A DNA stretch of 64,000 bases from a virus (Duplodnaviria; Caudoviricetes). Every line of letters begins with the position of its first letter. The first letter of the stretch is position 1. The notes below the pieces were generated by a model. The model was not told where the DNA came from. It ran no database searches and was given only the letters and a program-made list of their open reading frames with translations. Below are positions 12,682 through 57,400 of the stretch, in pieces. The translations under genes were made by a program, and so were the position numbers. The DNA lies in the IMG/VR virus record IMGVR_UViG_3300031466_000058, positions 1 through 64,000 of that record; one strand, given 5' to 3'.

Positions 12682-12764
12682 TGAAATATGAAATTCTCTA
12701 GATTAAAGAAATACATACCAGAAATAAATTGATAAAATGCGAGTTTTATAGAGAGGTGAAAAAT

Positions 12765-14307: not shown

Positions 14308-15174
14308 ATGAGTGAGCTAAATCCGACTAGAGTTATAGACAGTATTGATAAATCTTTCAATATTGATTGGGGCGTAAAAACAATAAACGCCCCTAAATTA
14401 TGGGAGCATACTAAAGGCGAAGGTATTAAAGTTGCTGTTATTGATACAGGAATTGATATGAACCATCCAGATTTAAAAGATAAGATTAAAGGAACTATAA
14501 ATATATTTGATAAGACTACTAGAGACGTAACAGATGTTTATGGTCATGGTACTCATGTAGCAGGGTTAATCGCAGGAGAATTAACAGGCGTAGCACCTAA
14601 TGTTGATTTGTATATTGCCAATGTTTTAAATGATAAAGGTTTGGGAAGAGTTGTTGACATATTAGATGGTGTTACATATGCTATAAACAGTAATGTTGAT
14701 ATATTATGTATGAGTTTAGGGGTAAATAAGAAGCTTCCACAGATACTCGAAGAGAGAATAAAGAAAGCTGTCAATAAAGGTATTATTACAATTTGTGCCA
14801 CAGGAAACAATGGTAAACAGGGCGTAGCCTATCCTGCTTCATATGATTTTGTTATTGGTGTAGGCGGTGTGAATCAAAATTTAGAGAGAGCTAACTTCTC
14901 TAATTACAGTTTCGATATGGATGTCGTAGCACCTGCTGTAGACATTTTAAGTACATGGAAAGATGGTAAATATGCTTATATGAGTGGTACTTCAACAGCT
15001 TCACCATTGGTTGCAGGTGGTTTGGCGTTAATTAAATCATACTATAGAAAACAAGGTATAGAAATAACCCCTACACAAATAAAAGAAATGATTGCAAAAC
15101 TAAATACAAAAAAGAATAGATTTTTAGGCTATGGATTGTTTGACGTTGCCAAGATTATAGGGTTAGAAATTTAA
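14308..15174 (+). CDS. S8 subtilisin-like serine protease, no signal peptide or propeptide
   Basis: Catalytic triad motifs VAVIDTG, HGTHVAG, SGTSTASP; oxyanion ATGN. Confidence 0.95.
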   Translation: MSELNPTRVIDSIDKSFNIDWGVKTINAPKLWEHTKGEGIKVAVIDTGIDMNHPDLKDKIKGTINIFDKTTRDVTDVYGHGTHVAGLIAGELTGVAPNVDLYIANVLNDKGLGRVVDILDGVTYAINSNVDILCMSLGVNKKLPQILEERIKKAVNKGIITICATGNNGKQGVAYPASYDFVIGVGGVNQNLERANFSNYSFDMDVVAPAVDILSTWKDGKYAYMSGTSTASPLVAGGLALIKSYYRKQGIEITPTQIKEMIAKLNTKKNRFLGYGLFDVAKIIGLEI

Positions 15175-15202
15175 AAAATCTAACCTTTTCTTATAAAAAG
15201 TG

Positions 15203-15231
15203 TTGACAAACGCAATTAATAATGATATAAT
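15203..15231 (+). promoter_or_regulatory. sigma-A promoter for the RNA-repair genes, preceded by terminator hairpin 15161-15189
   Basis: TTGACA-N17-TATAAT; GGTTAGA...TCTAACC followed by TTTT. Confidence 0.85.
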
Positions 15232-15262
15232 GTAATTAACGTAAGGGGGCGATACGATTGGG

Positions 15263-16435
15263 ATGAAGGAGATACTATATAATAACTTGCCAACTATGAC
15301 ACTAGATGAATTTAATAACTATAAAAACGAAGCAAACAATGGATATATAACAATCAAAGGGCATCCAGAAGATAATAATGTAGTAATCTTAAATTATACT
15401 GATTTGACTACATATGAAAGACGCTGGAATAAATATACGATGTCTGCAAGAGGTTTGATACTAGATTTGACAGATGTAAATGATAATGGTAAAATATACA
15501 TATTAGCTAAACCGTTTGGCAAATTCTTTAACTATGGTGAGAATAAAGATTATGAAAAAGATATTGATTTTTCAGATATTGAATCAATCACAGAAAAGAT
15601 GGATGGCTCATTAGGAATATCATATTTTTTTAATGGAGAGATTAGGTTTGCAACTCGTGGCAGTTTCAACTCTGACCAAGCAATTAAGGCAACAGAAATG
15701 TGGCGTAATAAGTATGCAGATAAGTTTAATTGGATTGGGTATATAAATTTCCCATATACAATGTTGGTAGAGATTATTTACCCACAGAATCGTGTGGTTG
15801 TTGATTATAAGGGTATGAAAGATTTAGTTATGCTGGGCATAACAAACTTATCAATAATGAAAGATGAGCCACTGTCAGTAGTTAAAAATTTAGCAAGTAA
15901 TTTAGGTATGCCTGTTACAAAAGAATATAGGTATGATTTACATAAATTACTAAAAATGAAAAAGACTATTTCAGCTAATAAAGAAGGTTGGATTATTAAA
16001 TTTGGTAATGGTAAACGCTTAAAAATAAAAGGCGATGAATACTTAAAAGTGCATAAAGCAATTTATGGATTATCTGATAAAGCTAAAGTGAAAGCTTGGG
16101 CAGAAAATAGTATTGATGAATTAATTAAGTCAATTCCAGAGGAATTTAGGGAAGAAATTGAAGAGTTAAAGAGGAATTTAGATATTCAATTGGAAATAAC
16201 TAAAAGTATCTTATCTACTATCTATATACACACGAAAGAATATACAAACGCTAGCAAAGAAAATAGAAAAGATTTTGCAAAAATGGTTAATCAAGCAATT
16301 AACCCAGAATATAGGAAATTTATGTTTGTTATGCTGGATAATAATGATGAACTTCCAGACAAAATGGTTAGAGAACATATTTTTAAAAATTACGAACATT
16401 ACTTATCTACTTGGAGTGATTTCGGTATGGGGTAA
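15263..16435 (+). CDS. T4 Rnl1-like RNA ligase
   Basis: ARGLIL, KPFGKFFN, motif I EKMDGS, ATRGSF, EIIYP, EGWII, RLKIKG. Confidence 0.9.
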   Translation: MKEILYNNLPTMTLDEFNNYKNEANNGYITIKGHPEDNNVVILNYTDLTTYERRWNKYTMSARGLILDLTDVNDNGKIYILAKPFGKFFNYGENKDYEKDIDFSDIESITEKMDGSLGISYFFNGEIRFATRGSFNSDQAIKATEMWRNKYADKFNWIGYINFPYTMLVEIIYPQNRVVVDYKGMKDLVMLGITNLSIMKDEPLSVVKNLASNLGMPVTKEYRYDLHKLLKMKKTISANKEGWIIKFGNGKRLKIKGDEYLKVHKAIYGLSDKAKVKAWAENSIDELIKSIPEEFREEIEELKRNLDIQLEITKSILSTIYIHTKEYTNASKENRKDFAKMVNQAINPEYRKFMFVMLDNNDELPDKMVREHIFKNYEHYLSTWSDFGMG

Positions 16436-16482
16436 GTGAAAAAGACATTCAATTAGTCATAGATTTATATAAAAACACTAAT

Positions 16483-17355
16483 ATGCCATTAATCAAAATA
16501 GCTAACATAATAGGATATAAATCAAAAGATATTGTTTATAAAATATTAAAAGAAAACAATATATGTAAAAGAAGAAGTGTAAAAAGGAAATTAAATGAAA
16601 ATGAAGAAAAAGAAATCATTTCATTATATAATAGCGGTCTATCCCAATATAAAATATCATCGATGTATGGTGTCTCACAATCAACTATTGGCAATATATT
16701 AAGAAACAATAATGTTAATACAAGAAAAGATGGAAGAATCTATACTATTAACGAAAGATATTTTGATAATATTGATAATCAAAACAAGGCATATATTTTA
16801 GGTTTTATTTATGCTGATGGATTTATTAGAAAAGATAATTTAGCATTATCAATTGTTGTACACAATAAAGATGTAGAAATTTTGGAGAAAATCAAGGCAG
16901 AATTGCAAAGCGACATACCTATTGAATATATTAAAAGTAAAAACCATAATAGAATCAATATTTGTAGTAAGAATATTTGTTTATCTTTAAATAAGATTGG
17001 CTGTAATAATGGAAAAACTTTTGATTTAAAATTCCCAAATATACAAAACGATTTAATTCCTCATTTTATTAGAGGGTATATGGATGGAGATGGTTGTATA
17101 AGTATATCTAACAAAAAATACGGTAAATATATATCTTTAAGTTTTACTGGAACGAAAGACATGATGGATTCATTTAAAAACCTATTAAACGTAGATAATA
17201 AAATTACATTTCATAGGAATGCATATGCCTTACATATTGGCAAAGAAAGAGATGTTATAAGGATATTAGATTGGATATATAAAGACGCAAAATTATATTT
17301 AAATAGAAAATATGAAAAGTACATAGAATTTAAGAGATACAAAAATAGGAAGTGA
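16483..17355 (+). CDS. Free-standing LAGLIDADG homing endonuclease with N-terminal HTH repeats
   Basis: AYILGFIYADG and HFIRGYMDGDG; HTH GLSQYKISSMYGVSQSTI. Confidence 0.9.
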   Translation: MPLIKIANIIGYKSKDIVYKILKENNICKRRSVKRKLNENEEKEIISLYNSGLSQYKISSMYGVSQSTIGNILRNNNVNTRKDGRIYTINERYFDNIDNQNKAYILGFIYADGFIRKDNLALSIVVHNKDVEILEKIKAELQSDIPIEYIKSKNHNRINICSKNICLSLNKIGCNNGKTFDLKFPNIQNDLIPHFIRGYMDGDGCISISNKKYGKYISLSFTGTKDMMDSFKNLLNVDNKITFHRNAYALHIGKERDVIRILDWIYKDAKLYLNRKYEKYIEFKRYKNRK

Positions 17356-17361
17356 TTAATC

Positions 17362-18366
17362 ATGAATAATAAATTTCTTATGCTAATTGGATTACCTGCT
17401 TCTGGAAAGTCTACTATTGCGAAAGAGATAACAGAAGATAGAGATGATATTTCTATTCACTCTTCTGATGAATTGAGAATTGAGCTATTTGGAGATATAA
17501 ATAATCAAGACAATAATGGTAAATTGTTTAACGAATTATATAAGAGAATAATCAACGATTTAAAAAGTGGAAAAAATGTAGTGATGGACGCTACAAATGT
17601 AAGTAGAAAGAGACGTAGAGGGTTATTACAACAACTACCAAAAGGGATTGAAAAAGTAGCTTGTTATGTTGATACAGAATATAAGGATATTGTAAAACAG
17701 AATCAAGAAAGAGAGCGTGTTGTACCACAGCACGCCATTGATAGAATGTATAAAACTTTACAGATTCCAATTTATAGTGAAGGTTGGGATAAGATTGTAT
17801 TCTTCCATCATGACAATGTAACTGGAAAACAATACCCACATCAATTTACGCAAGCTGTTAGAGTAGGTGCATTATTAGGTCGAGAAGGATATGATTTAAT
17901 GAAATTTTTAGCTTCATACTTTGATGAGTTTTTCGGAATTTACGATATGCCACAAGATTCAAAGTATCATAGTCTTTCTGTAAGCCGACACATATATTAT
18001 GTGTATAAGTATGTATTAGAAAATTATGAAGCTAAAGATGATTATGATAAAGAGATTATGCTTTGGACAGCATTGTGCCATGACATTGGCAAACATTTTT
18101 GCAAAAGCTTCGTAAACCGTAAAGGTGAAGAAACTCGGTACGCAAATTTCATTGGTCATGAATATGTTGGGTCTCAAATGGCAGTACATTTCTTACATAA
18201 AATGAATTTTGATGATGAGTTTATACATAAAGTTGCAACTCTAATTCAATTCCATATGTATTTATTAGATGAAAGAGCTAATAGAGATAAATTAAAGCGT
18301 TATGTGGGCGAAGAAATGTTTAAAAAATTAGAGTTTCTTCGTGAAGCAGATACTCTAGCACACTAA
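17362..18366 (+). CDS. Polynucleotide kinase (AAA_33) fused to HD phosphohydrolase
   Basis: GLPASGKST, SSDELR, DATN; HD domain YH...H, CHDIGK, GHEYVG, FHM, EADTLAH. Confidence 0.88.
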   Translation: MNNKFLMLIGLPASGKSTIAKEITEDRDDISIHSSDELRIELFGDINNQDNNGKLFNELYKRIINDLKSGKNVVMDATNVSRKRRRGLLQQLPKGIEKVACYVDTEYKDIVKQNQERERVVPQHAIDRMYKTLQIPIYSEGWDKIVFFHHDNVTGKQYPHQFTQAVRVGALLGREGYDLMKFLASYFDEFFGIYDMPQDSKYHSLSVSRHIYYVYKYVLENYEAKDDYDKEIMLWTALCHDIGKHFCKSFVNRKGEETRYANFIGHEYVGSQMAVHFLHKMNFDDEFIHKVATLIQFHMYLLDERANRDKLKRYVGEEMFKKLEFLREADTLAH

Positions 18367-18381
18367 TAGCGAGGTGATAAT

Positions 18382-18570
18382 ATGCTTATACATATATGGC
18401 AGATAACGGTAAACGGACAAAGAATTAATTTTGCAACCGAAACATTAGATATGGTGGAAGCTGTACAATTATTTAAAGATAAATTTCAGAAAGAAAATCC
18501 AAATAGAGCTTTTAATGCTGATAAAATTCAATGGATGGATAGCGTTAAATTTATTAGAGATAAGGAGTAA
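18382..18570 (+). CDS. Small hypothetical protein
   Basis: RBS GAGGTG. Confidence 0.65.
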   Translation: MLIHIWQITVNGQRINFATETLDMVEAVQLFKDKFQKENPNRAFNADKIQWMDSVKFIRDKE

Positions 18571-18614
18571 AAAATGAGTAAGATTAATAATAACTAATTT
18601 CGAGGTGAAATAAT

Positions 18615-18800
18615 ATGGAGTTAAAAAATATAATGACAGAAGATGAAATGGAGCAATATTTAATTAGTGAAGGTTATAATATTTTTGATTTAGAAAGATG
18701 TATAGATTCAGTTTTATTATCTGAATATGCAATTGACTTAGGTTATGAAATTCAATTTGCAGAAAATGATTTTGATTTAATTTTTATAAAAAGTGAATAG
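18615..18800 (+). CDS. Small acidic hypothetical protein
   Basis: RBS GAGGTG; stop codon lies in palindromic site 18797. Confidence 0.65.
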   Translation: MELKNIMTEDEMEQYLISEGYNIFDLERCIDSVLLSEYAIDLGYEIQFAENDFDLIFIKSE

Positions 18801-19031
18801 ATGGGAAATTTTATTTAGAAAGGAGTTGTGAATTTATAGATAAGTTCGGAGATAGAATTAAAAGGATTATTTAGAAAATAAAATATATTGATGGAGGTAA
18901 ATTGAATTTAAAAGAAATATTTATCGCAGATATAAAGAAAGTAAAGATACAAGAAATAGAAACAGGAGTAATAAAATTATATTATGAAATTAAATGAAAG
19001 ACGAATTTATTTGAAGTGAGGTGTATTATAT

Positions 19032-19292
19032 ATGACCAAAAGTGAAATAGTAGGTATGATTATTGAGTATTCAGAGAAATTTATTGAATTGAAATTACTT
19101 CTTGACTCATTAGTAATGGATATAAATAAATCAAATGATAAAGAGATTAACGATTATGTGTTAAAAGAATTAGAAAATAATCGTTACAATGAATTAATCG
19201 CAATGACTTTAAGAGCAATGGAAAATAAAATAAATTTTCTTCAATATGATAACGATATGTTAAGATCAAAAGTATATAAATGGAGATTATAA
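19032..19292 (+). CDS. Small hypothetical protein
   Basis: RBS GAGGTG; bounded by sites 18994 and 19292. Confidence 0.7.
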   Translation: MTKSEIVGMIIEYSEKFIELKLLLDSLVMDINKSNDKEINDYVLKELENNRYNELIAMTLRAMENKINFLQYDNDMLRSKVYKWRL

Positions 19293-19495
19293 TAAAAGAA
19301 CTGTTCTATACAATAGGAGGATATTTATATGTTCTTCAAGCGAACCAAACATACGAACAAGATAAAAATTATGAAGCTTCAATTGCTGGAACAATTAAGC
19401 AAATGAGAAGTTAAAGGAGTTGAATTTGTTAGATGGATATACAATTAAGTATTATGAATGAAATTCATCTTAATGTATAAAGGGAGGAATAGAAA

Positions 19496-19738
19496 ATGTT
19501 TAGAGATTATAAAGGATTTGATACATATAAACTAAAAAATATAAAAGTAATTAAAATTCATGATATGGCTGAAAGCAAGGAATATGAAGGTGTATTTCTT
19601 ATTAAATATATTAAGCCGTTTGAGATATGTTTAGTTAACAATAATGGGGAAGTGTTCACTTTAACAAGTGAATATTTTACAGATTGTAGTGGCGAATTTG
19701 CTCCATATTCAAGATTATCGATGGAAATAATTTTATAA
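19496..19738 (+). CDS. Small hypothetical protein
   Basis: RBS GGGAGG; bounded by two sites with the same TTCATC spacer. Confidence 0.7.
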   Translation: MFRDYKGFDTYKLKNIKVIKIHDMAESKEYEGVFLIKYIKPFEICLVNNNGEVFTLTSEYFTDCSGEFAPYSRLSMEIIL

Positions 19739-19777
19739 AATTCATCTTTTAAATAAATATAAAGGAGGATAATAAAA

Positions 19778-19969
19778 ATGGATAAGCCGAGTTTAACAGT
19801 TAAAATTGATGAAATACCAGAAGGAAATTTAGAAGTGGTATATAGCTACTTAATTAAAGCTGCAAAGAGATCACCGATGAGAACATTGCATAACCTCTTA
19901 AAAGAAATAACTGAAGAGAATCGTCATAAAGAACAGATTACGGATAGACAGGGCAAAGAATTAATTTAA
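19778..19969 (+). CDS. Orphan protein with MazE-like C-terminal peptide
   Basis: TLHNLLKEITEENRHKEQITDRQGKELI resembles the MazE tail [39 protein letters not shown]. Confidence 0.6.
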   Translation: MDKPSLTVKIDEIPEGNLEVVYSYLIKAAKRSPMRTLHNLLKEITEENRHKEQITDRQGKELI

Positions 19970-19993
19970 TATTTTAAAGAAAAAGGTGATTAA

Positions 19994-20146
19994 ATGAAAT
20001 TTACAAATGAACAATATAAATTATTAAAAATAGCTTATGATTGTTTAGAGAAAGTAGCAGAAGATATTCCTTTTAGAGTAGATGATATTGATTCAAGGAA
20101 ACTTTGGGAAGCTTTTATGGCATTAAGTATTATTTTAAGTGAATAA
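19994..20146 (+). CDS. Small hypothetical protein (50 aa)
   Basis: RBS AAGGTG; MKFTNEQYKLL...ILSE*; stop in site 20143; below the ORF-track length cutoff. Confidence 0.6.
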   Translation: MKFTNEQYKLLKIAYDCLEKVAEDIPFRVDDIDSRKLWEAFMALSIILSE

Positions 20147-20185
20147 AATCTTGTTTTTATCAAATGAAGGGAGCAGATAAAGCAT

Positions 20186-20401
20186 ATGTATAAAGCAAGA
20201 GTAGGTAATTCTTGGGTGAAAAATATTATACCCGTAAATGAAAATATTTATGATATTGAATTTACTACAAACAGATATTTAGCTAAAGACTTAGATTATG
20301 AAGATATACGTTATATATTAAAAGATTTTGATAATGTCAAAATAGTGAAAATCGAAATAAAAGAGATTGATGTTACAGATACCATAATAATGAGTTTATA
20401 A
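20186..20401 (+). CDS. Small hypothetical protein
   Basis: RBS AAGGGAG; stop in site 20398. Confidence 0.7.
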   Translation: MYKARVGNSWVKNIIPVNENIYDIEFTTNRYLAKDLDYEDIRYILKDFDNVKIVKIEIKEIDVTDTIIMSL

Positions 20402-20436
20402 ATTTCTCATTTTATTCAAAAAAGGAGGTTAACTAT

Positions 20437-20721
20437 ATGCCTGTTGTAGTTTATGGAAATATTCGAACAAACATTGACCCTAACACAGAAGCATACGAAT
20501 GGTTGCAGGAAATTTAATAATCACTATGGAGATGAAAAGTATGTCATCACTAAAACAACGATCAATTATCGTAGGTTGCTTTAAAAAAAACTTATACATA
20601 CTATTTAATTTACTGGAAATTAGCAGAAGGTGAGTATCAGCAATTATTGTCGTTTAAAAATTTAGATTTACAGGATGTTGAATGTTATTTATTAGGATGT
20701 CTGAATGGATTAAGTAAATAA
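20437..20721 (+). pseudogene. Frameshifted small gene between sites 20398 and 20718
   Basis: Strong [18 protein letters not shown]... stops early; downstream frame ...CYLLGCLNGLSK* ends inside the next site. Confidence 0.55.
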
Positions 20722-20753
20722 AATTTTAATTTCATTTAGAAAGGATGGATATC

Positions 20754-20957
20754 ATGATTCAAGTTTATGTTTATGATACGGAATATGATTTCAAGAAGCA
20801 ATTAGGTGATTTTGATATTAAAGATATTGAAGTTATTATTAAAATGTTTAAAAAATACGGTGCTGAATTTAATAATAAACAGTATGTGTTTAATAGATGT
20901 TATTATGATATAGATTTTGTGTCTTTCGCAATTGAGTTAATTGAAAAATCACAATAA
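20754..20957 (+). CDS. Small hypothetical protein
   Basis: [11 protein letters not shown]; stop in site 20954. Confidence 0.65.
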   Translation: MIQVYVYDTEYDFKKQLGDFDIKDIEVIIKMFKKYGAEFNNKQYVFNRCYYDIDFVSFAIELIEKSQ

Positions 20958-20986
20958 AAGACAGTTTTCATTCAGAAAGGAGTGAT

Positions 20987-21373
20987 TTGATGATAAAAAT
21001 TAAAGACGAAGTGTTGCGTCATATTCTTAAAGACATTAAGCAAAAAGCCTTTACTATGTCAGACGGCTGTGCATGTGGAGAGTATGCCTATCAATTAGAT
21101 AAAGATTTATGGTTATTTGCATATCGTAGTTGCCGTAAATCGAGCAATACTCCAAATGATAAGATGTGGCACATTCACGATTTAAAAATTTATAAAAATA
21201 TAAAAGCACATTATTATTCAGTTGATGGTAAAGAATACATAGATTATTATGAAGCAGAAGGAGAACCAATTTATTTTAAACTAAATACGAAACAAGAAGA
21301 ACAAATTATTAAAAGGTTAAAACGTGTTAGTTGGATTCAGTTAAATCAGCCTGAATATCGGGAACAAACCTGA
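20987..21373 (+). CDS. Hypothetical protein
   Basis: [9 protein letters not shown]; CACG motif. Confidence 0.7.
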   Translation: MMIKIKDEVLRHILKDIKQKAFTMSDGCACGEYAYQLDKDLWLFAYRSCRKSSNTPNDKMWHIHDLKIYKNIKAHYYSVDGKEYIDYYEAEGEPIYFKLNTKQEEQIIKRLKRVSWIQLNQPEYREQT

Positions 21374-21698
21374 ACAATGGAAGAATAAAGTTAATAAACA
21401 TGCTATGTCTGCTTTAAGGATTTTGGATTTCTTAGAACGATATAAAAATTTTAATTACAATTTCCAATTAGCAATTCGGTACACATATGAAGCGCAGCGA
21501 GATAATTTGTTAAGTGTCAGAAAAGGTAAATATTCGTTTAATGAGTTGGATGAAATGATGCAGTTGACAGAGCAATATACAATAGAAAAACTTAAAGATT
21601 GGTATAAGGGGCATAAACCGAATGAAGAAATGAAACGATGGGTTGAGGATGTAGTAAGAGAGCATGTGAAGAATTGTTTGAAGGAAGAGTTGCTGTGA
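21372..21698 (+). pseudogene. C-terminal fragment of a pol-beta-superfamily nucleotidyltransferase
   Basis: KHAMSALRILDFLERY...LLSVRKGKYS; no good RBS and no N-terminal GS/DxD motif. Confidence 0.5.
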
Positions 21699-22116
21699 GG
21701 TGGAAATGTTGATTAATAAAGAGTTAATTTTAACTCATAAAGAATTTGCCGAAACAATCATCGAACGGCTACAAGGCAAGAAAAGATTGGAACAGATTAG
21801 GTTACATAATGATTTAAATGATTATAAATAAAATAAATACATACAAGTAGGAAAAGAGAATTTAAAAGAAGGATTGTTTAATCTTACAGACAAAAAATTG
21901 AATAGAGATATATAAGGAATCAAAATCAAAAACATTGAAGTAATTGAAATGGTTAATGATTAATAGATACTGAAAAGAAAAGAGTGATATAGTTTATTTT
22001 GCCGAACAATTTTTAGATATAAAACTTCAATCATGGCAAAAAGATGTATTAAGAACCATTCCAAATGACAACAAGCTTAAATCTTGGCTTAATCTAAAGA
22101 GAAAGGGAGAAAACCA

Positions 22117-23289
22117 ATGAGTTTTGAAGGTTTATTCAAAGGTAAGACAATTTTAATGGGTTTTATGCACATGATAGTTGCATTTACCTCAATCGTAGTG
22201 ATAACAGGAGCTTTAGGATTTAATTTACCACTAGCATTTTTGTTTGCAGGAGTTGGAACGTTAATTTTCCACCTTGTTACTAAGAATGAAATACCTGTAA
22301 CTCTAGGGGTTTCTGGTGTATATATGGGTGCTATACTATTTGTGGTTAAGCAGTATGGTGTGGCATTCGCACATGGCGGTATTGTAGTAGCAGGGTTATT
22401 CTATATCTTATTTGCTTTAATTATGTTTAAATGGCAAGATAAGATACTACCATTATTCCCAACTTGGTTGCTATCAACAGTAGTAGCTTTAATTGGTTTA
22501 AGTTTATTACCTATTGGAGCAAGTCTTTTAACGACTAATATTTTAGTAGGCTTAACATCTCTAATTGTAACAGCTTTAGTTTCTTTAATCGGAAATGAAA
22601 AACTAGGAATGTTTGCAATACCTATCGGAGTATTAGCAGGAACTTTAGTGGCATTCTTTACAACAGGATTAACAATTCCATCTTCTGTGGGAATTGAATA
22701 TATCGCACCTCAATTCAACTGGCAATCAGCCTTAACTATTGGAGTGATGGCTTTCCCTGCAATGTTTGAGATGATGGGAGATACAAAAAATACAGGAAAT
22801 GTTATTGGTAAAAATATATTTAAAACAGTAGGATTAGGACGTATATCATTAGGTAACGGTTTAGCTAGTATGATAGGCGGTTTAGGTGGAAGTAACGCAT
22901 ATACAACATATGGAGAAAATGCTTCATTCGTTATGATGAGTAGATTCTATAATCCGTCTGCACAAATCTGGACAGGAATATTCTTAATAATTCTAGCATT
23001 CTTCTCACCTCTAATGACAATTATTTCAGCTATACCTATTGAAGCGTTTGGTGGAGCAGTAACGGTGCTCTTTGCTATGATTGTTACAAATGCTATTAAA
23101 CAAATTGGTGAATCTGTTGACCTAAACAAGAATCCCAAAGCATTCACTATTATTACAGTTATGATTGCAGTATCAATGCTTACTGTGTCTTTCGGTGGCA
23201 TTACCGTATCATCTGTAGCTGTAGCAACAGCAGTAGGCATATTTTTAAATGCATTATTTAATCGTGGTGATAAAAGTGAGAATATGTAG
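22117..23289 (+). CDS. NCS2 (UraA/PyrP-like) nucleobase permease
   Basis: About 13 TM segments; HMIVAF, GVGTLIFH, LGVSG, EMMGD, TTYGEN. Confidence 0.9.
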   Translation: MSFEGLFKGKTILMGFMHMIVAFTSIVVITGALGFNLPLAFLFAGVGTLIFHLVTKNEIPVTLGVSGVYMGAILFVVKQYGVAFAHGGIVVAGLFYILFALIMFKWQDKILPLFPTWLLSTVVALIGLSLLPIGASLLTTNILVGLTSLIVTALVSLIGNEKLGMFAIPIGVLAGTLVAFFTTGLTIPSSVGIEYIAPQFNWQSALTIGVMAFPAMFEMMGDTKNTGNVIGKNIFKTVGLGRISLGNGLASMIGGLGGSNAYTTYGENASFVMMSRFYNPSAQIWTGIFLIILAFFSPLMTIISAIPIEAFGGAVTVLFAMIVTNAIKQIGESVDLNKNPKAFTIITVMIAVSMLTVSFGGITVSSVAVATAVGIFLNALFNRGDKSENM

Positions 23290-23563
23290 TTTTTGTGGTA
23301 GTAATAAAGATGTTAGAAAACCTAGAGATTATGGAGGAGATTTATGTATTAAGCATTATACTCAATACAGAAGATATGGCAAACTGTTAGACAGAACTAG
23401 ATATGACAAGAATGAAATAATTAAAAATAACGAATATGCGGAAGTTATACTATATGACAAAAATCAAGAAGAAATCGCTAGGGTAAAAGATGCTGAAAAG
23501 AAATATTTTGGTGAATATAGCTATCTTAATAGAAAAAAGATCTTGACAGATATAAAAAAATAA
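23276..23563 (+). pseudogene. Internally deleted HNH-AP2 homing endonuclease
   Basis: N-terminal CSFC...LCIKHYTQYRRYG...DKNE joined directly to AP2-type tail AR.KDAEKKYFGEY; no HNH core. Confidence 0.6.
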
Positions 23564-23572
23564 TGATATAAT
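23543..23572 (+). promoter_or_regulatory. sigma-A promoter
   Basis: TTGACA-N18-TATAAT; TAATGA extension. Confidence 0.75.
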
Positions 23573-23590
23573 TATAGTAGAGGTGATGGT

Positions 23591-24886
23591 ATGGATAACT
23601 TAATTAAAATCATCAACGACTTAAAATCTGATTCAAGTCGTGCAGGTAAAGAAAAGATTCTAAAAGATAATGAGAATAACGCATTATTTAGGTATGTTTT
23701 AAAATTTGTATACAACCCCTTCATTGTAACAGGTTTGTCTACGAAAAAAGTGAATAAAAAAGTTAAAGTTGAGATTGATAGCAAGCATGATTTCAAAGAA
23801 ATTGAAGATGTTTTACGCTATCTGAAAGTGCATAATAGTGGTAGGGATTATGATATTGCTGTTGTGCAAAACTTCATCAACAAACTCTCTACAAAAGAAG
23901 CAAAAGATATTGCCAAACAAATTGTAACTAAAAGCTTGAAGGTTGGAATTACAGAGAAAACTATCAATAAAATATATGGAAAAGACGAGATTCCTAGCTT
24001 CTCTGTAATGCTAGCAGAATCATATGCTAAAAAAGAATCTTCATTGACAGGTGAGTTTTACATAACACAAAAGCTTGACGGAAATAGATGTGTAGCAATT
24101 AAAGATAATGATGAAGTTAGATTTTTTACACGCAAAGGTCAACCGATAGAAGGTATGGTAGACCTTGAAAAAGAAATAATGAAATTGCGAAACGGAATTG
24201 TTTTGGATGGAGAGCTACTTTTAAGAAACGACAACAATCTATCTACCGATGAATTATTTAGAGAGACACAAAAAATTGTAAGAAAAGATGGTGTAAAAGA
24301 AAATTTAAATTTTTATGTCTTTGACACCTTATCTGTCGAAGAATTTAAGCGTGGTAAATCTATTAATACATATGCAGACCGAAGAGAGCAACTAGAAAGC
24401 ATGTTTGCATTCTTTGGCGATGGATTTGAAAATGTTAAATTATTACCTGTATTATATAAAGGCAATGACAAAAATATGATTGCTGTATTAATGAAATATG
24501 CAGAAGAAAGAGGCTGGGAAGGACTAATGGTAAATACAGCAAGTGGCTTATACCAGAGCAAACGTACTACAGACCTTTTAAAAGTTAAGAAGTTTAAGAG
24601 TGCCGATGGAGTTATTTTAGGAGTTTATGAGGGTGAAGGGAGAAATAAAGGCAGATTAGGTGGCGTATTAGTTACCTATAAAGATATGGCTGTAAAAATA
24701 GGTAGTGGTTTTAGTGATGAGGAAAGAGTTGAATATTGGAATAATAAAGATAAAATTATAGGTAAGATTGGACAGTATAATTATTTTGAGGAATCGCAAA
24801 ATCAAAACGGAGGATATGATTTAAGGTTTGCCACATGGAAAGGCATTAGAGAAGATAAAAGCGATGGTGATGTGAATTATGAGTAA
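23591..24886 (+). CDS. lig: ATP-dependent DNA ligase
   Basis: VMLA, KLDGNRC, FTRKG, LDGEL, VFD, WEGLMV, LLKVKKF; OB domain GSGFSD. Confidence 0.95.
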   Translation: MDNLIKIINDLKSDSSRAGKEKILKDNENNALFRYVLKFVYNPFIVTGLSTKKVNKKVKVEIDSKHDFKEIEDVLRYLKVHNSGRDYDIAVVQNFINKLSTKEAKDIAKQIVTKSLKVGITEKTINKIYGKDEIPSFSVMLAESYAKKESSLTGEFYITQKLDGNRCVAIKDNDEVRFFTRKGQPIEGMVDLEKEIMKLRNGIVLDGELLLRNDNNLSTDELFRETQKIVRKDGVKENLNFYVFDTLSVEEFKRGKSINTYADRREQLESMFAFFGDGFENVKLLPVLYKGNDKNMIAVLMKYAEERGWEGLMVNTASGLYQSKRTTDLLKVKKFKSADGVILGVYEGEGRNKGRLGGVLVTYKDMAVKIGSGFSDEERVEYWNNKDKIIGKIGQYNYFEESQNQNGGYDLRFATWKGIREDKSDGDVNYE

Positions 24887-25228
24887 CAGAATTTACATCA
24901 TTGATGATAATGCATTAGACATTATTGATAGTGAAGATAAAGCTTATTTCTTAGGCTTTTTCTTCGCTGATGGTCACAATAGTAACAAGAATGAAATATG
25001 CATATCTGTCCAAGAAAGAGACGAGTATATTTTGAATAATTTTTTGCATATCCTCAAATCAAACCATGTTATAAAACGAAAAGAGATAGGTGGGAATAAC
25101 TATTCTGAAATACGGATTACAAATAAAAAGCTATCTAATAGGTTGAGAGATATCGGTGCAAATTCAAATAAAACTTTTAATGCACGTTTCCCAAGTCAAA
25201 TTAATGATAGTTTAGTTAGGCATTTTAT

Positions 25229-26492
25229 AGAAAATGGCGTAAAACCCCTACGCCTTTAGGCTAGGGGATGTAAGCCCTATATACGAAAAAAGGAGGTGAA
25301 AAATCAATGATTGTAAATAAAGCATATAAGTTTCGGCTCTATCCGAACAAAGAACAAGAAATATTAATTAATAAAACCTTTGGGTGCTGTCGATTTGTAT
25401 TTAATCATTTTTTAGCAAAATGGGATAATACTTATAAAGAGGCAGGAAAAGGTTTGACTTATAATTCTTGTTCTGCTCAGTTAACACAATTAAAAAAAGA
25501 ATTAACTTGGCTAAAAGAAGTGGATAGTATTGCACTTCAATCGTCATTAAAAAATCTTGCTGACGCTTATTCCCGTTTCTTCAAGAAACAAAACGATAAA
25601 CCACGTTTTAAGTCCAAGAAAAATCCTATTCAGTCTTACACGACAAAGTATACAAATGGCAATATTGCTATTAATGGTAATAAAATCAAATTACCTAAAC
25701 TTGGATGGATTCGTTTTGCAAAGAGTCATGAAGTAGAAGGTCGCATTCTCAATGCAACAATTAGACGTAATCTAAGTGGAAAATATTTTGTATCCATTCT
25801 TGTAGAAACAGAAGTTCAGGAATTACCTAAAACTGACTCTGCTGTTGGCATAGATGTCGGCTTGAAAGAATTTGCTATTCTTTCAGATGGAACGATTTAC
25901 TCTAATCCTAAGTTTTTTCGAAGATTAGAAGAAAAATTAGCAAAAGCACAACGGATTCTATCAAGACGTAAAAAAGGTGGTTCTAATTGGAACAAACAAC
26001 GAATTAAAGTTGCTCGTATTCATGAAAAAATCACAAACGCTAGAAACGATTACTTGCATAAAATCTCCACCTATATTGTCAAAAACCACGACATTATCGG
26101 GATGGAAGATTTGTCTGTAAGTAATATGTTAAAAAATAACAATCTTGCTAAAGCAATTAGCGAAGTATCATGGTCACAATTTAGAACGATGTTAGAATAC
26201 AAAGCGAAATGGTACGGAAAGCAAGTTGTTACCGTATCGAAAAATTTTCCATCCAGCCAGCTTTGTTCGTGCTGTGGCTACAAAAACAAAGACGTTAAAA
26301 ATCTTGCATTGCGTGAATGGGTGTGTCCTAATTGTCATACCCATCATAACCGAGATATTAACGCAAGTTTAAATATTCGCAAGGAAGCCTTGCGATTAAC
26401 CGTAGGAACTACGGGGATAGCCTAATCAATTAGAGTTCGGTAGAACTCTGTACTTAGGAATCCACTACGGCTTTAGCCTAGTGGTAGTTCAA
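25229..26492 (+). mobile_element. IS200/IS605-family (IS1341-like) non-autonomous element, TnpB only
   Basis: Follows TTTAT; left hairpin CCCCTACGCCTTTAGGCTAGGGG; right hairpin CCACTACGGCTTTAGCCTAGTGG; ends TTCAA; no tnpA; no canonical target duplication at the junctions. Confidence 0.88.
25307..26425 (+). CDS. tnpB: RNA-guided endonuclease TnpB
   Basis: [12 protein letters not shown]; RuvC motifs GIDVG, MEDL, RDINAS; zinc ribbon CSCC...CPNC. Confidence 0.96.
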
Positions 26493-26836: not shown

Positions 26837-27247
26837 ATGAAACCTATGACGTACTATAACAGTTTTTGGTACAGATTTACCCGACCAATTAAGCGGTTGT
26901 GGTTTAAATTCCTGCTAAACAGAGATAAGTTAATTAAGGTTGATGAGCGTCACCATGGTGTGGGAAAAACCTATATGATGATTGAAAGAGCAATAAAAGA
27001 AGATATTCCCATTGTTGTAGGCAACCAACAACAAGTTTATTTGATTAAAAGGGATGGGAACCCTGTTGAAGTATTGAGATTGGCAAAAAATTTCACCATT
27101 GATTTTAAGGGTAGACGTTTCCCAAATGGGGTTATGATTGATGAATCTGTAGACCCAGAAATGATTCATTTTATAGAGAGAGAAAATATTAAAATTCGTG
27201 GTGGATTTATTAGAAATTATAAGGGTGATAAAGAAAATGAAAGCTAA
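26837..27247 (+). CDS. Small P-loop-like hypothetical protein
   Basis: HGVGKT and GVMIDE within 136 aa. Confidence 0.6.
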   Translation: MKPMTYYNSFWYRFTRPIKRLWFKFLLNRDKLIKVDERHHGVGKTYMMIERAIKEDIPIVVGNQQQVYLIKRDGNPVEVLRLAKNFTIDFKGRRFPNGVMIDESVDPEMIHFIERENIKIRGGFIRNYKGDKENES

Positions 27248-27632
27248 AAGAATAGCTGTCGTCTATATTCCTAATAGACTAGATAGTATATCTAGTGCTG
27301 AGAAAATATTTAACAAGATTATTTCAGAGTTAGAAGATAGTGGACTTAAAGTTAAGCATTCCAACAAAGTTTTAACATTGTTTGATAATGCTACAAAAGT
27401 TGAGAAAGTGCCTTTTGGTAAAGCAATGATTGGCATGAGAATTACACATATGTATATAGATAGAAACGTGCTTGAATTAGAAGGTGGAGAACGATTTGTT
27501 AATGAAGCATTAATACCATGTGTTATCTCTAATGGAAACTATAATAACTTAGACGCTACAGAAGAAGTGAAGGAACGAGTGTTTATTTTTGATTTAAAAG
27601 GAAACACAGAAAAATATTCTAAAAACTATTGA
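27237..27632 (+). CDS. Hypothetical protein
   Basis: ATG overlapping the upstream gene; RBS AAGGGTG. Confidence 0.6.
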   Translation: MKAKRIAVVYIPNRLDSISSAEKIFNKIISELEDSGLKVKHSNKVLTLFDNATKVEKVPFGKAMIGMRITHMYIDRNVLELEGGERFVNEALIPCVISNGNYNNLDATEEVKERVFIFDLKGNTEKYSKNY

Positions 27633-28199
27633 CAAATACAGTCTGTAATGATATAATATAGGGAGAAGGAGATATTAACCTTCTCCTATTTTTATCTATA
27701 AGGGGTGTATGCTATGATAGATTTGAATAAGTTTACAGAAGAAGAGATTAAGCTAATCGAAGATATGATAGACAGCAAGATAAAGTTTGAGTATGAGTTT
27801 CAATCGAAACACTCGAAACTATATGATAAGTTTGCCAAAGAAAGAGAGAAAGAGATTGAAGCACTCACAATATTAAAGACTAAAATTATTAATCTGAAAA
27901 GTATTGACAAAAACAAATTATAATGATATAATATATACACAAGGGGTGAACATAATGACTAGGGTAATCGTTACAGTAGTCTATAATCAACATTATGATA
28001 TACATATAGATTGATAAAATCAGAATTTTATACAGAGGTGAATATCATGGAAATGCCTATATGGTATCAAGAAGAGTTGAGAGAATCATTTTTCGAGAAA
28101 GATGTTTTTACCATTATCCAACTAAATAAAAGTTGGTACAAAACTTTAAAACAAATTCAAAAAGAACTCCTTGACAGAAATAAATAATAATGATATAAT
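27629..28199 (+). promoter_or_regulatory. Three tandem sigma-A promoters (27629-27657, 27904-27932, 28171-28199)
   Basis: Each is TTGACA-N17-TATAAT with TAATGA extension. Confidence 0.85.
27705..27923 (+). CDS. Small hypothetical protein
   Basis: ORF with RBS AAGGGG. Confidence 0.6.
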   Translation: MYAMIDLNKFTEEEIKLIEDMIDSKIKFEYEFQSKHSKLYDKFAKEREKEIEALTILKTKIINLKSIDKNKL

Positions 28200-39792: not shown

Positions 39793-39822
39793 AATAACTT
39801 GATAAAACCACTCTTTTATCAA

Positions 39823-54478: not shown

Positions 54479-57400
54479 TTAACGACCTTTCTTCTTAATC
54501 CCTTTGAGAATTTCTGTGGCAATATCTTTGGCTTTCTTCTTATCTCCACCTTCAACTGTCACGTTAATATCGCCATATGTAATGTTGTTTACGATAGTTC
54601 CTGCTGTCGCAAGTTTATCTATTACACTACTACGTTTAATGTCTGGCATAATCCGTCTCACTTTATCCATAATCTTAGCTGTGTCTAAGATATGTGATGT
54701 CTGTTTTTCGTTAAGGACAAGCTCTTTCTTATGAAGCAATGCAAGTTTACCGTCTTGACCTGCCCATTCACCTGTATAACCACCTGTTCTCAATCCAATT
54801 ACATCTCGCTCTCTTACCCAAGCGATAGCGTCATTGATGTTGTTTCTCTTAGCAAGTGCTACATAGCCACCTCTTATGTTTACAACATATAGAGGGTCAC
54901 TATATCCTACACCTGCGTATTTAGCTTGGTCTGCCCAAGGTCTTACTTGTCTACCGTAAGAATCTATGTAAGCAGGAGCATTTTTAACGTTAACTTTAGC
55001 TTTACCTCCAACTTTCAGAGGTTTACCGCCTTTGTTTGATGATTTTGATGATGAAGGTGGTGCTGTAGGTGCTTTTGCATCATAAATTACCGCAGAACTT
55101 CCTCCACTCCATGTTGTCTCTTTTGGGTTGCCTACGCTATACCCATCTCCGATGTAAACACCGTATTTAGACTTTTGAGCGTCAGCTACTTGGTCTAGTA
55201 GACCTTCGCTGTTGAAGTTCATGTTACTAATGTCAATTCCGAACAATTCAGCAAACTCTTGTTTTAATTCTTCTGAGAATCCAGAGAATCCTTTAGTTAG
55301 ATTGTTGAAGTTACCTTGTGTCATTCTAGCTAACTGTTTACTCATTTCTTCTAATTCTTGGGTTAATGTTGAGAAGCTACCTTTAATGAAGTTCTCTCTC
55401 ATTTCTGCCCATTTTCTTTCATCGTTTAACATATCATCATAATACTTAGAAATGTCGCCAGCTTCTTTGTCAAGTTCTTCAACTCTTGTGTCATAATCTT
55501 CTTGTTCTGCTTCTTTTTGAGCTTCAAGTTCATCAATTTGTTGTTTACGTTGATTCTCAATTTCTTCACGAAGAAGTTTGTCTTGACGTTCTCTCATAAA
55601 TTGAGCAATTTCTTGGTCTAACTGTTCTAGTTCTCTGCGTAATTCATCTACACGTTTACGTCCTTCGACAGATGTATCTCTTGATAAAAGTGAGATTTTA
55701 TTAACTAGTTCGGCACGTTTTTTGTTTTTCTCATCAAGTTGTTCTTGATATTCAGCTTCTTCTTTCTCTTTATCCATAGCTTTTAGACGCTCATCGTACA
55801 CATTATTAATGCGTTCGATTTCTTTATCATACATCTTCATTTTTTCTTCGTGTGCCTTTTGTAGTTCACGTTTTTCTAACTCGATGGCTTTTAACGCCAT
55901 ATCCTTCATTTTTCCATAGTAGTCTTTTAATTGGCTGATACCTTTGTCAGCTACAGTTCCACGAGCGTCTTCAATATCTTTTTCTGCTCTTAATACTTGT
56001 AGTGTAATATCTTCTAAGCTTTCTTTTGCGTTATCTAATTCTTGTTTAACCTTTTGAGCTTCTTTAGATGATTTACCGTATTTCTTAACTGCCTTATCAT
56101 ATTCTTTTTGTAAGTGATTTACCATGTTTCGAATTGTTGCTTCTTGTTCTGAGTATCCTCTAGCTCTTTTAGCTAGTAAATCTAACTCCTTCTTAATGTT
56201 TTCTGGGTCAGTTAATTCTAACACGTCTAATTCAAACTGAATGTTATCCACTTTAGCTGTTATACCCTCGATAGCGTTATTGTATTTTCCAACAATTTCG
56301 TCTACCCAATCGATAAAGATTTCTGTCATGTTGTTTTTAATCTTCTGATTAGTTTCTTCAATCGACCTTTCTAGGCTTTGGATTTTGTCAATGTTTTGCT
56401 CGTATTCTCTTTGTAACTCGTTATATTTCTTACGTTGTGCTTCTGAATGTTTACTTGTTTGACCTAGAGATTTAATTTGTTTTTCAATCTGTTTTTGTCT
56501 ATTCTTAAGTCGGCTAAGTTCTGCCTTTTCGATAGAAGCTAATTTTTGTGATTCGAAAATTACTTGCTTCAATGCATTTCTGTATTGCAATGTATTTTCA
56601 GTCATCGCTCTCATTCGTGTTTCAATCATACTTATAGCATGACTATAAGCGTCTGCTGTTCTGTCATTTTTGTTCCATGTATAAAGTGCTTCAAGTTCTT
56701 TCTTATTGGCGAAAGCCATAAACTGATAATCACCGTCTAGGTTAACTCCACCTTCATAGATAGATGGTTGAATGATACCAGAAGTACCAGAACCTCCACC
56801 ACCTTCGACAGAGCCACCTTCACCAGACAATGCACCGAAACCGCCACTAATATAAGCACCGAACCCACCGTAGCTTCTAATTTTTCTTAACAAGCCTAAT
56901 TCTTCACCTGCTTGTCTCCATAAGTCAACAGCACGAGTTCTATGTTGTTCAAGAGGGATTACAACTTCACGCTTATCGTCTTCACCGACTATAGCTAGAT
57001 GTTCTTTCTCGATGAATCCACCTTCTTCATATCCTACACCTCTCCAACCTCTCAACAGAGAACCATAACGAGCAAGTGTATATCGGATAGAAGCTAAAAT
57101 GTTGTCCAAAGGATTCCAAATATTGTTATAACCCGGCATCTTATATGCTTGGAATGTTGGGTCAATAACTTGCATTAAACCTTTAGATGGAGTTCCACGT
57201 TTTGCGTTAATATCCCATAAGTTGATTGCTCTTGGGTTTCCACCTGACTCAGTTCGCATTTGGAACAATAATCTTTCAAGGTTTGCTGGTGTTAATTGAC
57301 CTGTCATAGCCAGAGCTTTCATAGCTACTCCACGCCAACGTTCTACGCCACCACCGTAGCCACCACTTGCGAAGTTGCTCCAATCATTAGACACATAAGC

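Follow-up and report, generated by a model that had tools for sequence, protein, structure and literature searches.

Introduction

Gene cassettes of the integron type, with attC sites, have been reported in phages (Qi et al. 2023, PMC9892861), and in T4-type phages PeSL motifs lie between the small non-essential open reading frames (ORFs) of hyperplastic regions, where insertions and deletions (indels) as well as replacements fall (Arbiol et al. 2010, PMC2839356). A PeSL is described there as a sigma-70 promoter with a terminator stem-loop that is thought to serve as a recombination substrate. In Acinetobacter plasmids, pdif sites of XerC and XerD flank resistance modules (PMC7399989, PMC6449649, PMC5790767, PMC12907356). 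The SPbeta repressor MrpR has a recombinase fold, has lost recombinase activity and binds the 15-bp element SPBRE at some ten promoters (Kohm et al. 2023, PMC10516654). The Tyrovirus group of temperate Bacillus siphophages (160–170 kb) takes its name from three conserved tyrosine recombinases, and a recombination site is proposed for one of them alone: directly behind the gene of the structural-module recombinase gp50 lies a putative attP of 11-bp inverted repeats around a 6-bp core (PMC9703825). Here we analyze another palindromic element, ATAAAA-N6-TTTTAT, in 64,000 nucleotides of viral DNA (positions 1 to 64,000 of IMG/VR record IMGVR_UViG_3300031466_000058, in the following the window), where copies of it lie between the small genes of an accessory array.

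How phages gain and shuffle small accessory genes, such as those for anti-defence or host takeover, is a long-standing question, commonly answered with rare illegitimate recombination and with homologous exchange through the genes on either side. Our data describe a discrete 18-bp phage-specific element that marks one-gene slots across a phage family including SPbeta, the tractable model prophage of B. subtilis. We found no earlier description of this motif in the literature searched, subscription journals including the 1999 SPbeta genome paper lying outside the search, and the accessible text of the Tyrovirus paper contains neither "palindrom" nor "intergenic" (PMC9703825).

Results and Discussion

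The window comprises the first 64 kb of an 89.9-kb viral contig with an estimated completeness of about 55%. The contig encodes a class Ib ribonucleotide reductase with an intein, an RNA ligase, a polynucleotide kinase (PNK)/HD protein, an ATP-dependent DNA ligase, a DnaE-type polymerase and a 3140-aa tape-measure protein. Because its best matches are to vB_BcoS-136 (BcoS-136), FADO, PJN02, 2S-4, PK-3, the Thrax phages and PBC2, we assign the window phage to the Tyrovirus group. Two or three genes lie between the PNK and DNA ligase genes in BcoS-136, FADO and PJN02. FADO matches PJN02 and 2S-4 at about 97% identity across about 151 kb.

Exact copies of ATAAAA-N6-TTTTAT number 7 in the contig itself, 14 in BcoS-136, 30 in FADO, 28 each in PJN02 and 2S-4, 22 in Thrax1, 20 in PBC2, 26 in PK-3, 17 in Geobacillus virus E3, 13 in SPbeta and 14 in phi3T. 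The same pattern written back to front, used as a control, is absent from eight relatives and occurs once each in SPbeta and phi3T. The gap between the arms is strictly kept: across five genomes a gap of six nucleotides yields 7, 30, 13, 13 and 17 copies, and any other gap (0 to at least 12 nt) yields 0–2. In a 4.2-Mb Halobacillus genome all 29 copies fall within a related prophage (contig 23, 55.8–214.5 kb) and none in the approximately 4 Mb of host chromosome. Phages phiL47 (Lactococcus) and LC76P1 (Lysinibacillus), which have the DnaE-type polymerase in common, hold one copy each, which is the background level. The motif is a real, family-wide and phage-specific element, and since the host chromosome carries no copies its reader is most likely phage-encoded. 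A host-factor site was rejected on the same ground (0 copies outside the prophage in the one lysogenic 4.2-Mb genome checked). The ComK, Fur, FNR, DnaA and IHF boxes are, we presume, look-alikes of the motif only.

A preliminary description of the window had interpreted the array as a local platform downstream of the RNA-repair operon. This interpretation is not supported, because the element is scattered over the whole genomes of a large phage group, with copies inside the tape-measure gene and across the -35 box of a promoter. The window holds the following exact copies outside the array (no strand assigned):

12732..12749: exact site with spacer TGCGAG, 3 nt ahead of a ribosome-binding site (RBS)
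28014..28031: exact site with spacer TCAGAA, 3 nt ahead of the RBS of ORF 28047–28187 and about 80 nt past the promoter at 27904
39802..39819: exact site with extended arms, TTGATAAAA-N6-TTTTATCAA, 3 nt past a stop codon and ahead of a terminator-like hairpin
55684..55701: exact site within the 3140-aa tape-measure gene, encoding N-K-I-S-L-L-S

At the tape-measure copy both arms are exact at the same place in the window phage, FADO, PJN02, Thrax1 and PBC2 (53–59% amino acid identity) and not in BcoS-136; the encoded peptide reads N/D-K-I-x-L/V-L-S across phages, and no RBS accompanies this copy. Such keeping of the nucleotides suggests a role at the DNA level apart from gene junctions. A further copy stands 3.1 kb beyond the end of the window (contig 67105–67122), where its spacer is the -35 box TTGACA of a consensus sigma-A promoter preceding the neck, recombinase and tape-measure/tail genes. 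This copy is orthologous in the contig, FADO, BcoS-136, Thrax1 and the Halobacillus prophage (spacer TTGACA or TTGAAA), and PBC2, PK-3 and E3 also hold an exact copy with a TTGACA or TTGAAA spacer, matched by the spacer alone. Other copies lie ahead of promoters or terminators. As a separate observation, exact copies in the core genome appear by eye to recur about every 10–16 kb, as at window positions 39802 and 55684, contig positions 67105 and 79308, and across FADO 89200–164203, where the intervals between copies measure 12.2, 10.3, 16.6, 11.7, 11.0 and 13.3 kb.

The 50 exact copies of three genomes give an extended consensus T-R-R-ATAAAA-[T]N4[A]-TTTTAT-M-M-A. Its flanks are conserved (T at -3 in 43 of 50 copies, A at +3 in 47 of 50), so that the arms reach about 9 bp, but the flanking positions pair with each other in only 14 (-1/+1) and 20 (-2/+2) of these sites. 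The window's own degenerate copies show no compensated arm changes, and as RNA the 24-mers fold weakly (mean -2.4 kcal/mol). An RNA hairpin or terminator was rejected on weak folding, the lack of compensatory pairs and the lack of any terminator call at the sites; a stable compensated stem, as expected of an intrinsic terminator or structured RNA, was looked for in the copies and not found. One SPbeta copy (116414–116431) does fall within an annotated stem_loop (116406–116431) of the SPBc2 record. A sigma-A promoter within the sites was also rejected, given the 6-nt arm spacing and the lack of any 11- or 12-of-12 promoter in the array, and a search of four genomes for a phage sigma factor returned no PF04542 match, although very divergent sigma factors would escape it. 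The strict 6-bp gap, the A/T-only arms, the weak folding and the missing compensatory changes suggest a sequence-specific phage dimer that reads double-stranded DNA. The copies in the tape-measure gene, at the -35 box and near promoters and terminators are likewise more readily explained by a symmetric dimer on double-stranded DNA than by an RNA signal. The preliminary description had compared the geometry with the core sites of tyrosine recombinases, and inverted arms around a spacer of fixed length, with the N6 gap alone enriched, are indeed what we find.

With respect to genes, the element occupies a characteristic place. FADO, of which 88% is coding, has 39 sites with at most one mismatch, and 35 of them are noncoding; start codons most often follow the end of the motif at 12–15 nt. 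A stop codon occupies motif positions 2–4 at 13 sites in FADO, 9 in BcoS-136 and 4 in the window phage's own genome. Copies are usually placed, as had been noticed in the array, between a stop codon and the following RBS.

For the array itself, the preliminary description had counted nine copies with 6-bp arms. Scored against the 12 arm bases of ATAAAA-N6-TTTTAT, the nine 18-mers comprise one exact copy (20143) and five with a single mismatch; the copies at 18797 and 18994 are weak, the latter being by motif alone indistinguishable from background, and that at 19458 is no copy of the motif. The features are listed below (strand given where one applies).

15203..15231, + strand: 12-of-12 sigma-A promoter upstream of the RNA ligase gene, the last one ahead of the array; the next lies at 23543–23572
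18615..21373, + strand: co-directional small-ORF array, transcribed from the promoter at 15203 and missing in the IMG/VR relative L001; ORFs 18615–18800, 18902–18997, 19032–19292, 19496–19738, 19778–19969, 19994–20146, 20186–20401, 20745–20957 and 20987–21373
18797..18814: degenerate site ATAGAT-N6-TTTTAT (2 mismatches), with the TAG stop of ORF 18615–18800 at positions 2–4; behind it an RBS, then a dead GTG-AAT-TTA-TAG stub
18994..19011: weak site-like junction ATGAAA-N6-TTTATT (3 mismatches), with the TGA stop of ORF 18902–18997 inside the left arm
19292..19309: ATAAAA-gaactg-TTCTAT (1 mismatch), directly behind the stop of ORF 19032–19292
19458..19475: no motif copy (5 mismatches); together with the 19735 junction it forms a direct repeat of about 45 nt, of which it is the left copy, and both contain AAATTCATCTT
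19735..19752: ATAAAA-ttcatc-TTTTAA (1 mismatch), with the TAA stop of ORF 19496–19738 at positions 2–4; breakpoint in two relatives
20143..20160: exact ATAAAA-tcttgt-TTTTAT (0 mismatches), with the TAA stop of ORF 19994–20146 at positions 2–4
20398..20415: ATAAAT-ttctca-TTTTAT (1 mismatch), left edge of a replaced slot
20437..20722, + strand: decayed, frameshifted unit between two sites; a relative has a different insert of 597 letters in this slot
20718..20735: ATAAAA-ttttaa-TTTCAT (1 mismatch), right edge of the replaced slot
20954..20971: ATAAAA-gacagt-TTTCAT (1 mismatch), with the TAA stop of ORF 20745–20957 at positions 2–4
21405..21698, + strand: C-terminal remnant of a nucleotidyltransferase gene, 89% identical in nucleotides to part of Geobacillus virus E3 gene E3_0154, without bounding sites
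21828..21833: left-arm remnant ATAAAA behind ORF 21700–21831; metagenome contig X3 has the full ATAAAA-N6-TTTTAT with RBS and ATG here

Part of the earlier picture of the array stands. The upstream stop codon occupies motif positions 2–4 at 18797, 18994, 19735, 20143, 20398 and 20954 and overlaps position 1 at 19292, and an AGGAG-like RBS follows 4–9 nt downstream of the right arm. The units were said to be promoterless, and no 11- or 12-of-12 sigma-A promoter falls within the array, which is flanked by 12-of-12 promoters at 15203 and 23543. They were also said to be unrelated: eight of the ten small ORFs belong to no PHROG family, a search for homologues of the small proteins added one weak locus for the 128-aa protein, and nucleotide searches of the phage collection with the array returned nothing except the E3 fragment. 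Decay is evident in the frameshifted unit 20437–20722 and in the nucleotidyltransferase remnant 21405–21698. Two statements need correction. Genes were described as joined at the repeats, which applies to 6 of the 15 junctions between 18570 and 22117 if at most one mismatch is allowed, whereas the other junctions have no such site. The spacer TTCATC was described as shared by the sites at 19458 and 19735; the letters are present at both places, but the 19458 copy has no arms and is a non-site, so that the claimed pair with a duplicated spacer is unsupported. These letters belong to the two copies of the direct repeat (about 45 nt), whose identity was estimated by eye at roughly 75%.

In L001, which is about 88% identical to the window phage, some 160 bp stand in place of window positions 18555–21908, with other small genes nearby, which identifies the array as an accessory insert in a conserved backbone. 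The left breakpoint of L001 at 18555 lies off any site.

We considered the possibility that base composition produces the pattern, with a TAA- and A-rich stop context followed by a U-rich stretch ahead of the RBS mimicking a palindrome in an AT-rich genome. The left arm does contain TAA, the T-R-R flank can be read as a stop codon, and three of the nine claimed sites score no better than background. The expected numbers nevertheless speak against this explanation. Between 18797 and 20971, where 0.38 sites with at most one mismatch are expected, we count 6, a number reached in 0 of 500 first-order Markov resamples, which provides the enrichment over composition-matched DNA that the preliminary description had proposed as a check. 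With up to two mismatches the signal fades (7 sites against 3.3 expected, reached by 26 of 500 resamples). Over the whole 64-kb window, chance would give 0.21 exact sites and 3.48 with at most one mismatch; the numbers observed are 5 and 13. Together with the 0–1 copies per genome of the back-to-front control, the gap profile, in which N6 alone is enriched, and the empty host chromosome rule out a compositional origin, to which we assign a vanishingly small probability.

The resemblance to integrons, on which the preliminary description had built its reading of a capture platform, is confined to packing: promoterless one-gene units are arranged in the order stop codon, site and RBS, with the site abutting or overlapping the stop and the next gene a few bases on. 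An attC site is a longer imperfect palindrome (R''-L''/L'-R', with unpaired bases) that is recombined as a folded single strand by the adjacent IntI at attI. The element studied here is instead an 18-bp perfect palindrome with a free 6-bp spacer, is not tied to one gene, occurs genome-wide and has neither an adjacent integrase nor an attI, and the array is read from the ordinary sigma-A promoter at 15203. Since the sites lack attC structure, some indels involve one site and some copies sit in core genes or a promoter, we do not retain the integron-like platform.

If the element marks points of gene exchange, breakpoints between related phages should coincide with it. As null models we used random gene boundaries or intergenic positions, based on our own crude gene calls. 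The comparison of FADO with PJN02 and 2S-4 yields 83 merged homology ends, of which 15 are no more than 10 nt away from a site, whereas 4.05 (gene boundaries) or 4.29 (intergenic positions) are expected, and this number was reached in 0 of 2000 samples. Restricting the test to the first 60 kb, where sites and indels are concentrated, still leaves 12 of 50 ends near a site, with 3.73 expected and 1 of 5000 samples attaining the observed number. Twenty-nine FADO copies have an identical 18-mer in PJN02; both 80-nt flanks are kept at 18 of them, only the upstream flank at 3, only the downstream flank at 5 and neither at 3. The corresponding numbers for 2S-4 are 16, 2, 5 and 4, and 10 (PJN02) and 12 (2S-4) FADO copies have no identical partner. 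At two slots, bounded by the spacers tttcca/tgcgag and ttctaa/tgttga, FADO and PJN02 have the same pair of sites but a different gene in between. A further gene, specific to FADO, has an N5 copy on one side and an N6 copy on the other, and PJN02 has a single copy there.

The array of the window could be compared over positions 15000–25000 with contigs of four public metagenome runs at 85% identity or more. These contigs are assemblies of mixed samples, some of their joints have short sides (30 letters), and the evidence extends to the contig-covered parts of the window. Contig 21 of X7 matches 20288–20415, continues with 597 other letters and resumes the match at 20717–21032; the decayed unit is thus replaced exactly, from the end of site 20398 to the start of site 20718. 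Another X7 contig follows the window from 18900 to 19751 with 0 differences and then diverges, inside site 19735–19752. In X4, positions 19743 and 19751 are joined to other DNA, again both inside this site, and the insert behind 19751 opens with the last letter of a right arm and an RBS. In X7 and X9, contig matches break off at 18792 and 18794, shortly before site 18797 is reached, and X3 has a complete site where the window retains only the left arm (21828–21833). The coincidence of breakpoints with sites that the preliminary description had asked for was accordingly found, in the array as well as between close relatives, and far more often than coincidence with gene boundaries in general.

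These observations recall the PeSL motifs, in that a repeated motif stands between small ORFans and the breakpoints of indels and replacements fall at it. Those motifs are reportedly also treated in a further study, by Comeau et al. in 2014 (PMC4122927). The present element differs from them in being an 18–24-bp palindrome with a strict and variable 6-bp spacer, in sharing spacers across lineages and in having copies in core genes. Nor does the region 18570–21900 offer the promoter and terminator of a PeSL: promoters scoring 11 or 12 of 12 and listed terminator-like sites are both missing there, and the hairpin is a weak A/U one. A further mark of PeSL-type cassettes is mini-circles, which arise when neighboring motifs recombine.

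On balance we lean toward reading the array sites as local copies of a phage-specific palindromic junction element that acts as a crossover point for gene exchange by a short-homology route, a reading in which we include the more general one of the element as a slot boundary. A phage-encoded dimeric protein would read the arms on double-stranded DNA, and the element, squeezed in behind the stop codon of a small gene and ahead of the following RBS, would mark a one-gene slot. When a related phage co-infects or is already resident, copies of identical spacer would recombine, so that the slot gene is swapped, added or removed, and the uniqueness of spacers within a genome would keep the phage from deleting its own DNA. 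The phage's own annealing and exonuclease proteins might drive short-homology recombination at this conserved island, as proposed for the T4-type PeSL; SPbeta has annotated candidates for both, a Sak4-like annealing protein and a RecJ-like exonuclease. Protein binding, the recombination route and any regulatory role are what we infer here from the observed motif, its distribution and position, its coincidence with breakpoints, slot replacement and spacer sharing.

We compared spacers among seven lineages and searched nine lineages for segments of high identity. Within genomes, 0 of 1385 spacer pairs are identical (0.92 expected). Comparison between lineages gives 21 identical pairs among 7130, where 4.72 would be expected, and the flanks of 16 of these resemble each other no better than random DNA does. 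With spacer TGCGAG, the 18-mer at window 12732 precedes unrelated proteins in the window phage, BcoS-136, PJN02 and 2S-4 and is also found in the Halobacillus prophage. The 18-mer of site 20143 is identical in FADO, there in an unrelated context, and the spacer of site 20954 (gacagt) equals that of SPbeta site 44416. Spacers even keep their order: the series ACTCAA-GTTTAC-TTTTAC-TCTTAA is preserved, whole or in part, in BcoS-136, Thrax1, FADO and the Halobacillus prophage, and CTTCTA-TGCGAG-TTTCCA in FADO and the Halobacillus prophage. Because shared and ordered spacers stand in unrelated contexts, we conclude that conservation is higher for the sites, spacers included, than for the genes that they enclose.

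The slot with spacers TTCTAA and TGTTGA illustrates this behavior. It is present in SPbeta, BcoS-136, FADO, PJN02 and 2S-4 and contains a 63-aa protein in PJN02 that is 100% identical to SPbeta YotC, an unrelated 101-aa protein in FADO and 2S-4, and a 41-aa protein in BcoS-136. The only nucleotide match of at least 85% identity between SPbeta and PJN02 is a segment of 262 bp (97.7%) comprising yotC, and this segment ends 4 and 11 nt outside the two sites.

This behavior raises the question of a dedicated enzyme. Each copy could be the core site of a conserved phage tyrosine recombinase, with two 6–9-bp arms and a 6-bp crossover spacer, a reading that we regard as possible though doubtful. The spacer might then, we would tentatively add, serve as the address of a slot, barring self-deletion within a genome and directing precise two-site exchange between phages. 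Such a process would amount to a natural heterospecific recombinase-mediated cassette exchange, nearer to the pdif modules of Acinetobacter than to integrons. Core geometry, the strict N6 gap and phage-specificity are in line with site-specific recombination, as are the contrast between 0 of 1385 and 21 of 7130 identical spacer pairs, the identical 18-mers between unrelated genes and the yotC segment ending at two sites. A crossover within the spacer is also expected to leave arm differences on the outer side. Among six independent events with an arm difference, the differing arm goes with the outer, non-homologous flank in four, which fit this expectation, and not in two, which do not. Full sites at both junctions, likewise expected of such a reaction, are seen in two-site replacements and in one two-site insertion. 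Several other observations disagree: three single-gene indels have one site in the longer allele, and no cassette variation accompanies the copies in the tape-measure gene, at the -35 box and, about every 10–12 kb, in the core genome. The site arms of Xer, Cre and Flp are 11–13 bp long, longer than the arms of the motif, which also weighs against site-specific recombination.

The comparison with pdif has two sides as well. Both systems have many inverted-arm sites with a 6-bp spacer around exchangeable modules, and Xer-type recombinases are available in both. The pdif arms are 11 bp long, differ between XerC and XerD and are read by host enzymes. In contrast, the arms of the present element are identical to each other, consist of A and T only, measure 6–9 bp, and the element is missing from the host chromosome.

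The statement that the window contains no recombinase gene is true, yet an XerC/D-like gene lies about 1 kb beyond its end. This gene (contig 64972–65970), the sole PF00589 match in a contig that is about 55% complete, belongs to the structural module, where the neck genes and the tape-measure gene flank it; the array is about 44 kb away. Its 332-aa product aligns with XerC-like, XerA and XerD structures, and GCRREE, HPHLFR, LLGHES and TTQIY stand at what we take to be the places of the catalytic R, HxxR, H and Y. Judged from its sequence, the protein is apparently catalytically intact, which is a further point for site-specific recombination. Co-occurring tyrosine recombinases, which the preliminary description had suggested looking for, thus exist as the conserved enzymes of these phages, and that a site is proposed for just one of the three Tyrovirus recombinases counts in the same direction. 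Two active-looking recombinase types, however, also have homologues in the motif-free phages phiL47 and LC76P1, which counts against them as readers. The putative attP of gp50, the structural-module recombinase to which the contig gene corresponds, comes from the same phage group and has the same arm-6-arm geometry, but it is a single site behind a recombinase gene and is described as an 11-6-11 repeat; the sequence behind the gp50 homologues of FADO and BcoS-136 is unrelated to the motif, and we rejected the identity of the two, which again speaks against a tyrosine recombinase acting at the motif. In this region of the contig (64025–65970), a GIY-YIG homing endonuclease gene overlaps the end of the recombinase gene, where relatives reportedly have the putative attP.

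Alternatively, the element could act in expression alone, as an operator, roadblock or intercistronic mRNA signal, and breakpoints would gather at it merely because it is a conserved island beside dispensable genes. We judge this unlikely. The fixed distance of 12–15 nt to the start codon and the stop codon inside the left arm would suit such a role, as would the -35 hexamer that forms the spacer ahead of the tail operon in five lineages, where a bound protein would occlude the promoter. SPbeta copies at 57147 and 128076 also lie in divergent promoter regions. On the other hand, an expression element leaves unexplained the identical spacers in unrelated contexts, their kept order and the two-site cassette common to SPbeta and PJN02; the hairpins are weak and uncompensated, and the tape-measure copy has no RBS.

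A homologue of mrpR (yopR; FADO 27012–28037) is the only one of 249 FADO genes that occurs in BcoS-136, E3 and SPbeta but in neither phiL47 nor LC76P1. This co-occurrence with the motif would favor a role in expression, but with two negative and three positive genomes it is a lead, not a result. As another correlate, an HU/IHF-like protein was of no use, as the family match appears in 10 of 10 phages including motif-free ones, the one in phiL47 being below the family cut-off. SPBRE and the motif are alike in being short elements repeated through a phage family, and a homologue of the recombinase-fold reader of SPBRE co-occurs with the motif. From the ten named promoters we derived SPBRE as roughly CAAATACAAAwAATATGTATATAAT, a promoter sequence unrelated to the motif, and we rejected the motif as SPBRE or MrpR operator for this reason. 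Of the 10 named MrpR-target genes, yorE, yorM and yorZ have an exact motif copy at a distance of up to about 250 nt; none was found near the other 7, and the reported MrpR peaks carry SPBRE, a different sequence, which adds to the case against an expression element. As an observation on the window's own promoters, the strong early ones at 12324, 15203, 23543, 27904, 28171 and near 33105 have a common spacer and extended -10 (...AATAATGATATAAT) that recall the derived SPBRE. These early promoters may be operators of an MrpR-like repressor in this phage group.

Returning to the crossover point used by a short-homology route, several observations are unfavorable to it. In the window, X4 joins 19266 to 19450 and so lacks 19267–19449, X9 joins 21375 to 23272, and both junctions are off sites, as are loose ends at 18765, 19805, 19962, 20807, 20817, 20845 and 21781. 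All three of the single-gene indels that were read first have one site in the longer allele and 4–8 nt of microhomology at the other junction; some events are therefore plain illegitimate deletions or insertions beside a site. The only inter-lineage match of at least 85% besides yotC (window 21387–21702 against E3) is not bounded by sites. Conservation of spacers across lineages is not explained by a protein that binds the arms only and fits spacer-dependent site-specific recombination at least equally, identity tracts of 18–24 bp are short for homologous recombination, and a function in gene expression could instead account for the close distance to the RBS. With these reservations, short-homology recombination appears somewhat more likely to us than dedicated site-specific recombination.

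The array stands among other mobile or variable genes. A LAGLIDADG-type homing endonuclease gene (16483–17355) lies between the RNA ligase and PNK genes; it is missing in L001 and skipped or replaced in contigs X4 and X9 (joints 16162 to 17647/17648, with 528 other letters in X9). Behind the array, the small-gene remnant at 21908–22064 is full of stops, and its intact counterpart in L001 (11352–11508) is 80% identical. The adjoining gene of the xanthine/uracil permease family (22117–23289) is present in L001 and missing from the X9 contig with the joint 21375 to 23272, and BcoS-136, FADO and PJN02 have none at the same place. Between the DNA ligase gene and the next block of small genes lies a TnpB/IS605 OrfB-type gene (25307–26425) with helix-turn-helix, OrfB and Cas12f-like TNB domains.

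Conclusion

We describe a motif-bounded modular shuffling element with a real chance of being a new enzyme-driven cassette-exchange system. What the data show is precise slot replacement, a gene moved between phages otherwise without nucleotide similarity, and spacers that outlast the genes around them, which makes the mechanism directly testable in the SPbeta system. Should the spacers prove to be recombinase addresses, an outcome we would not bet on, they would open a pan-family market for accessory genes, with swaps during co-infection or with a resident prophage, from SPbeta to the Tyrovirus group. An enzyme-driven exchange would represent a natural cassette-exchange system that is new and might become a tool. 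Without such an enzyme, the PeSL idea would extend from T4-type coliphages to siphophages of Gram-positive bacteria. The plasticity of accessory arrays in these phages would also be explained.

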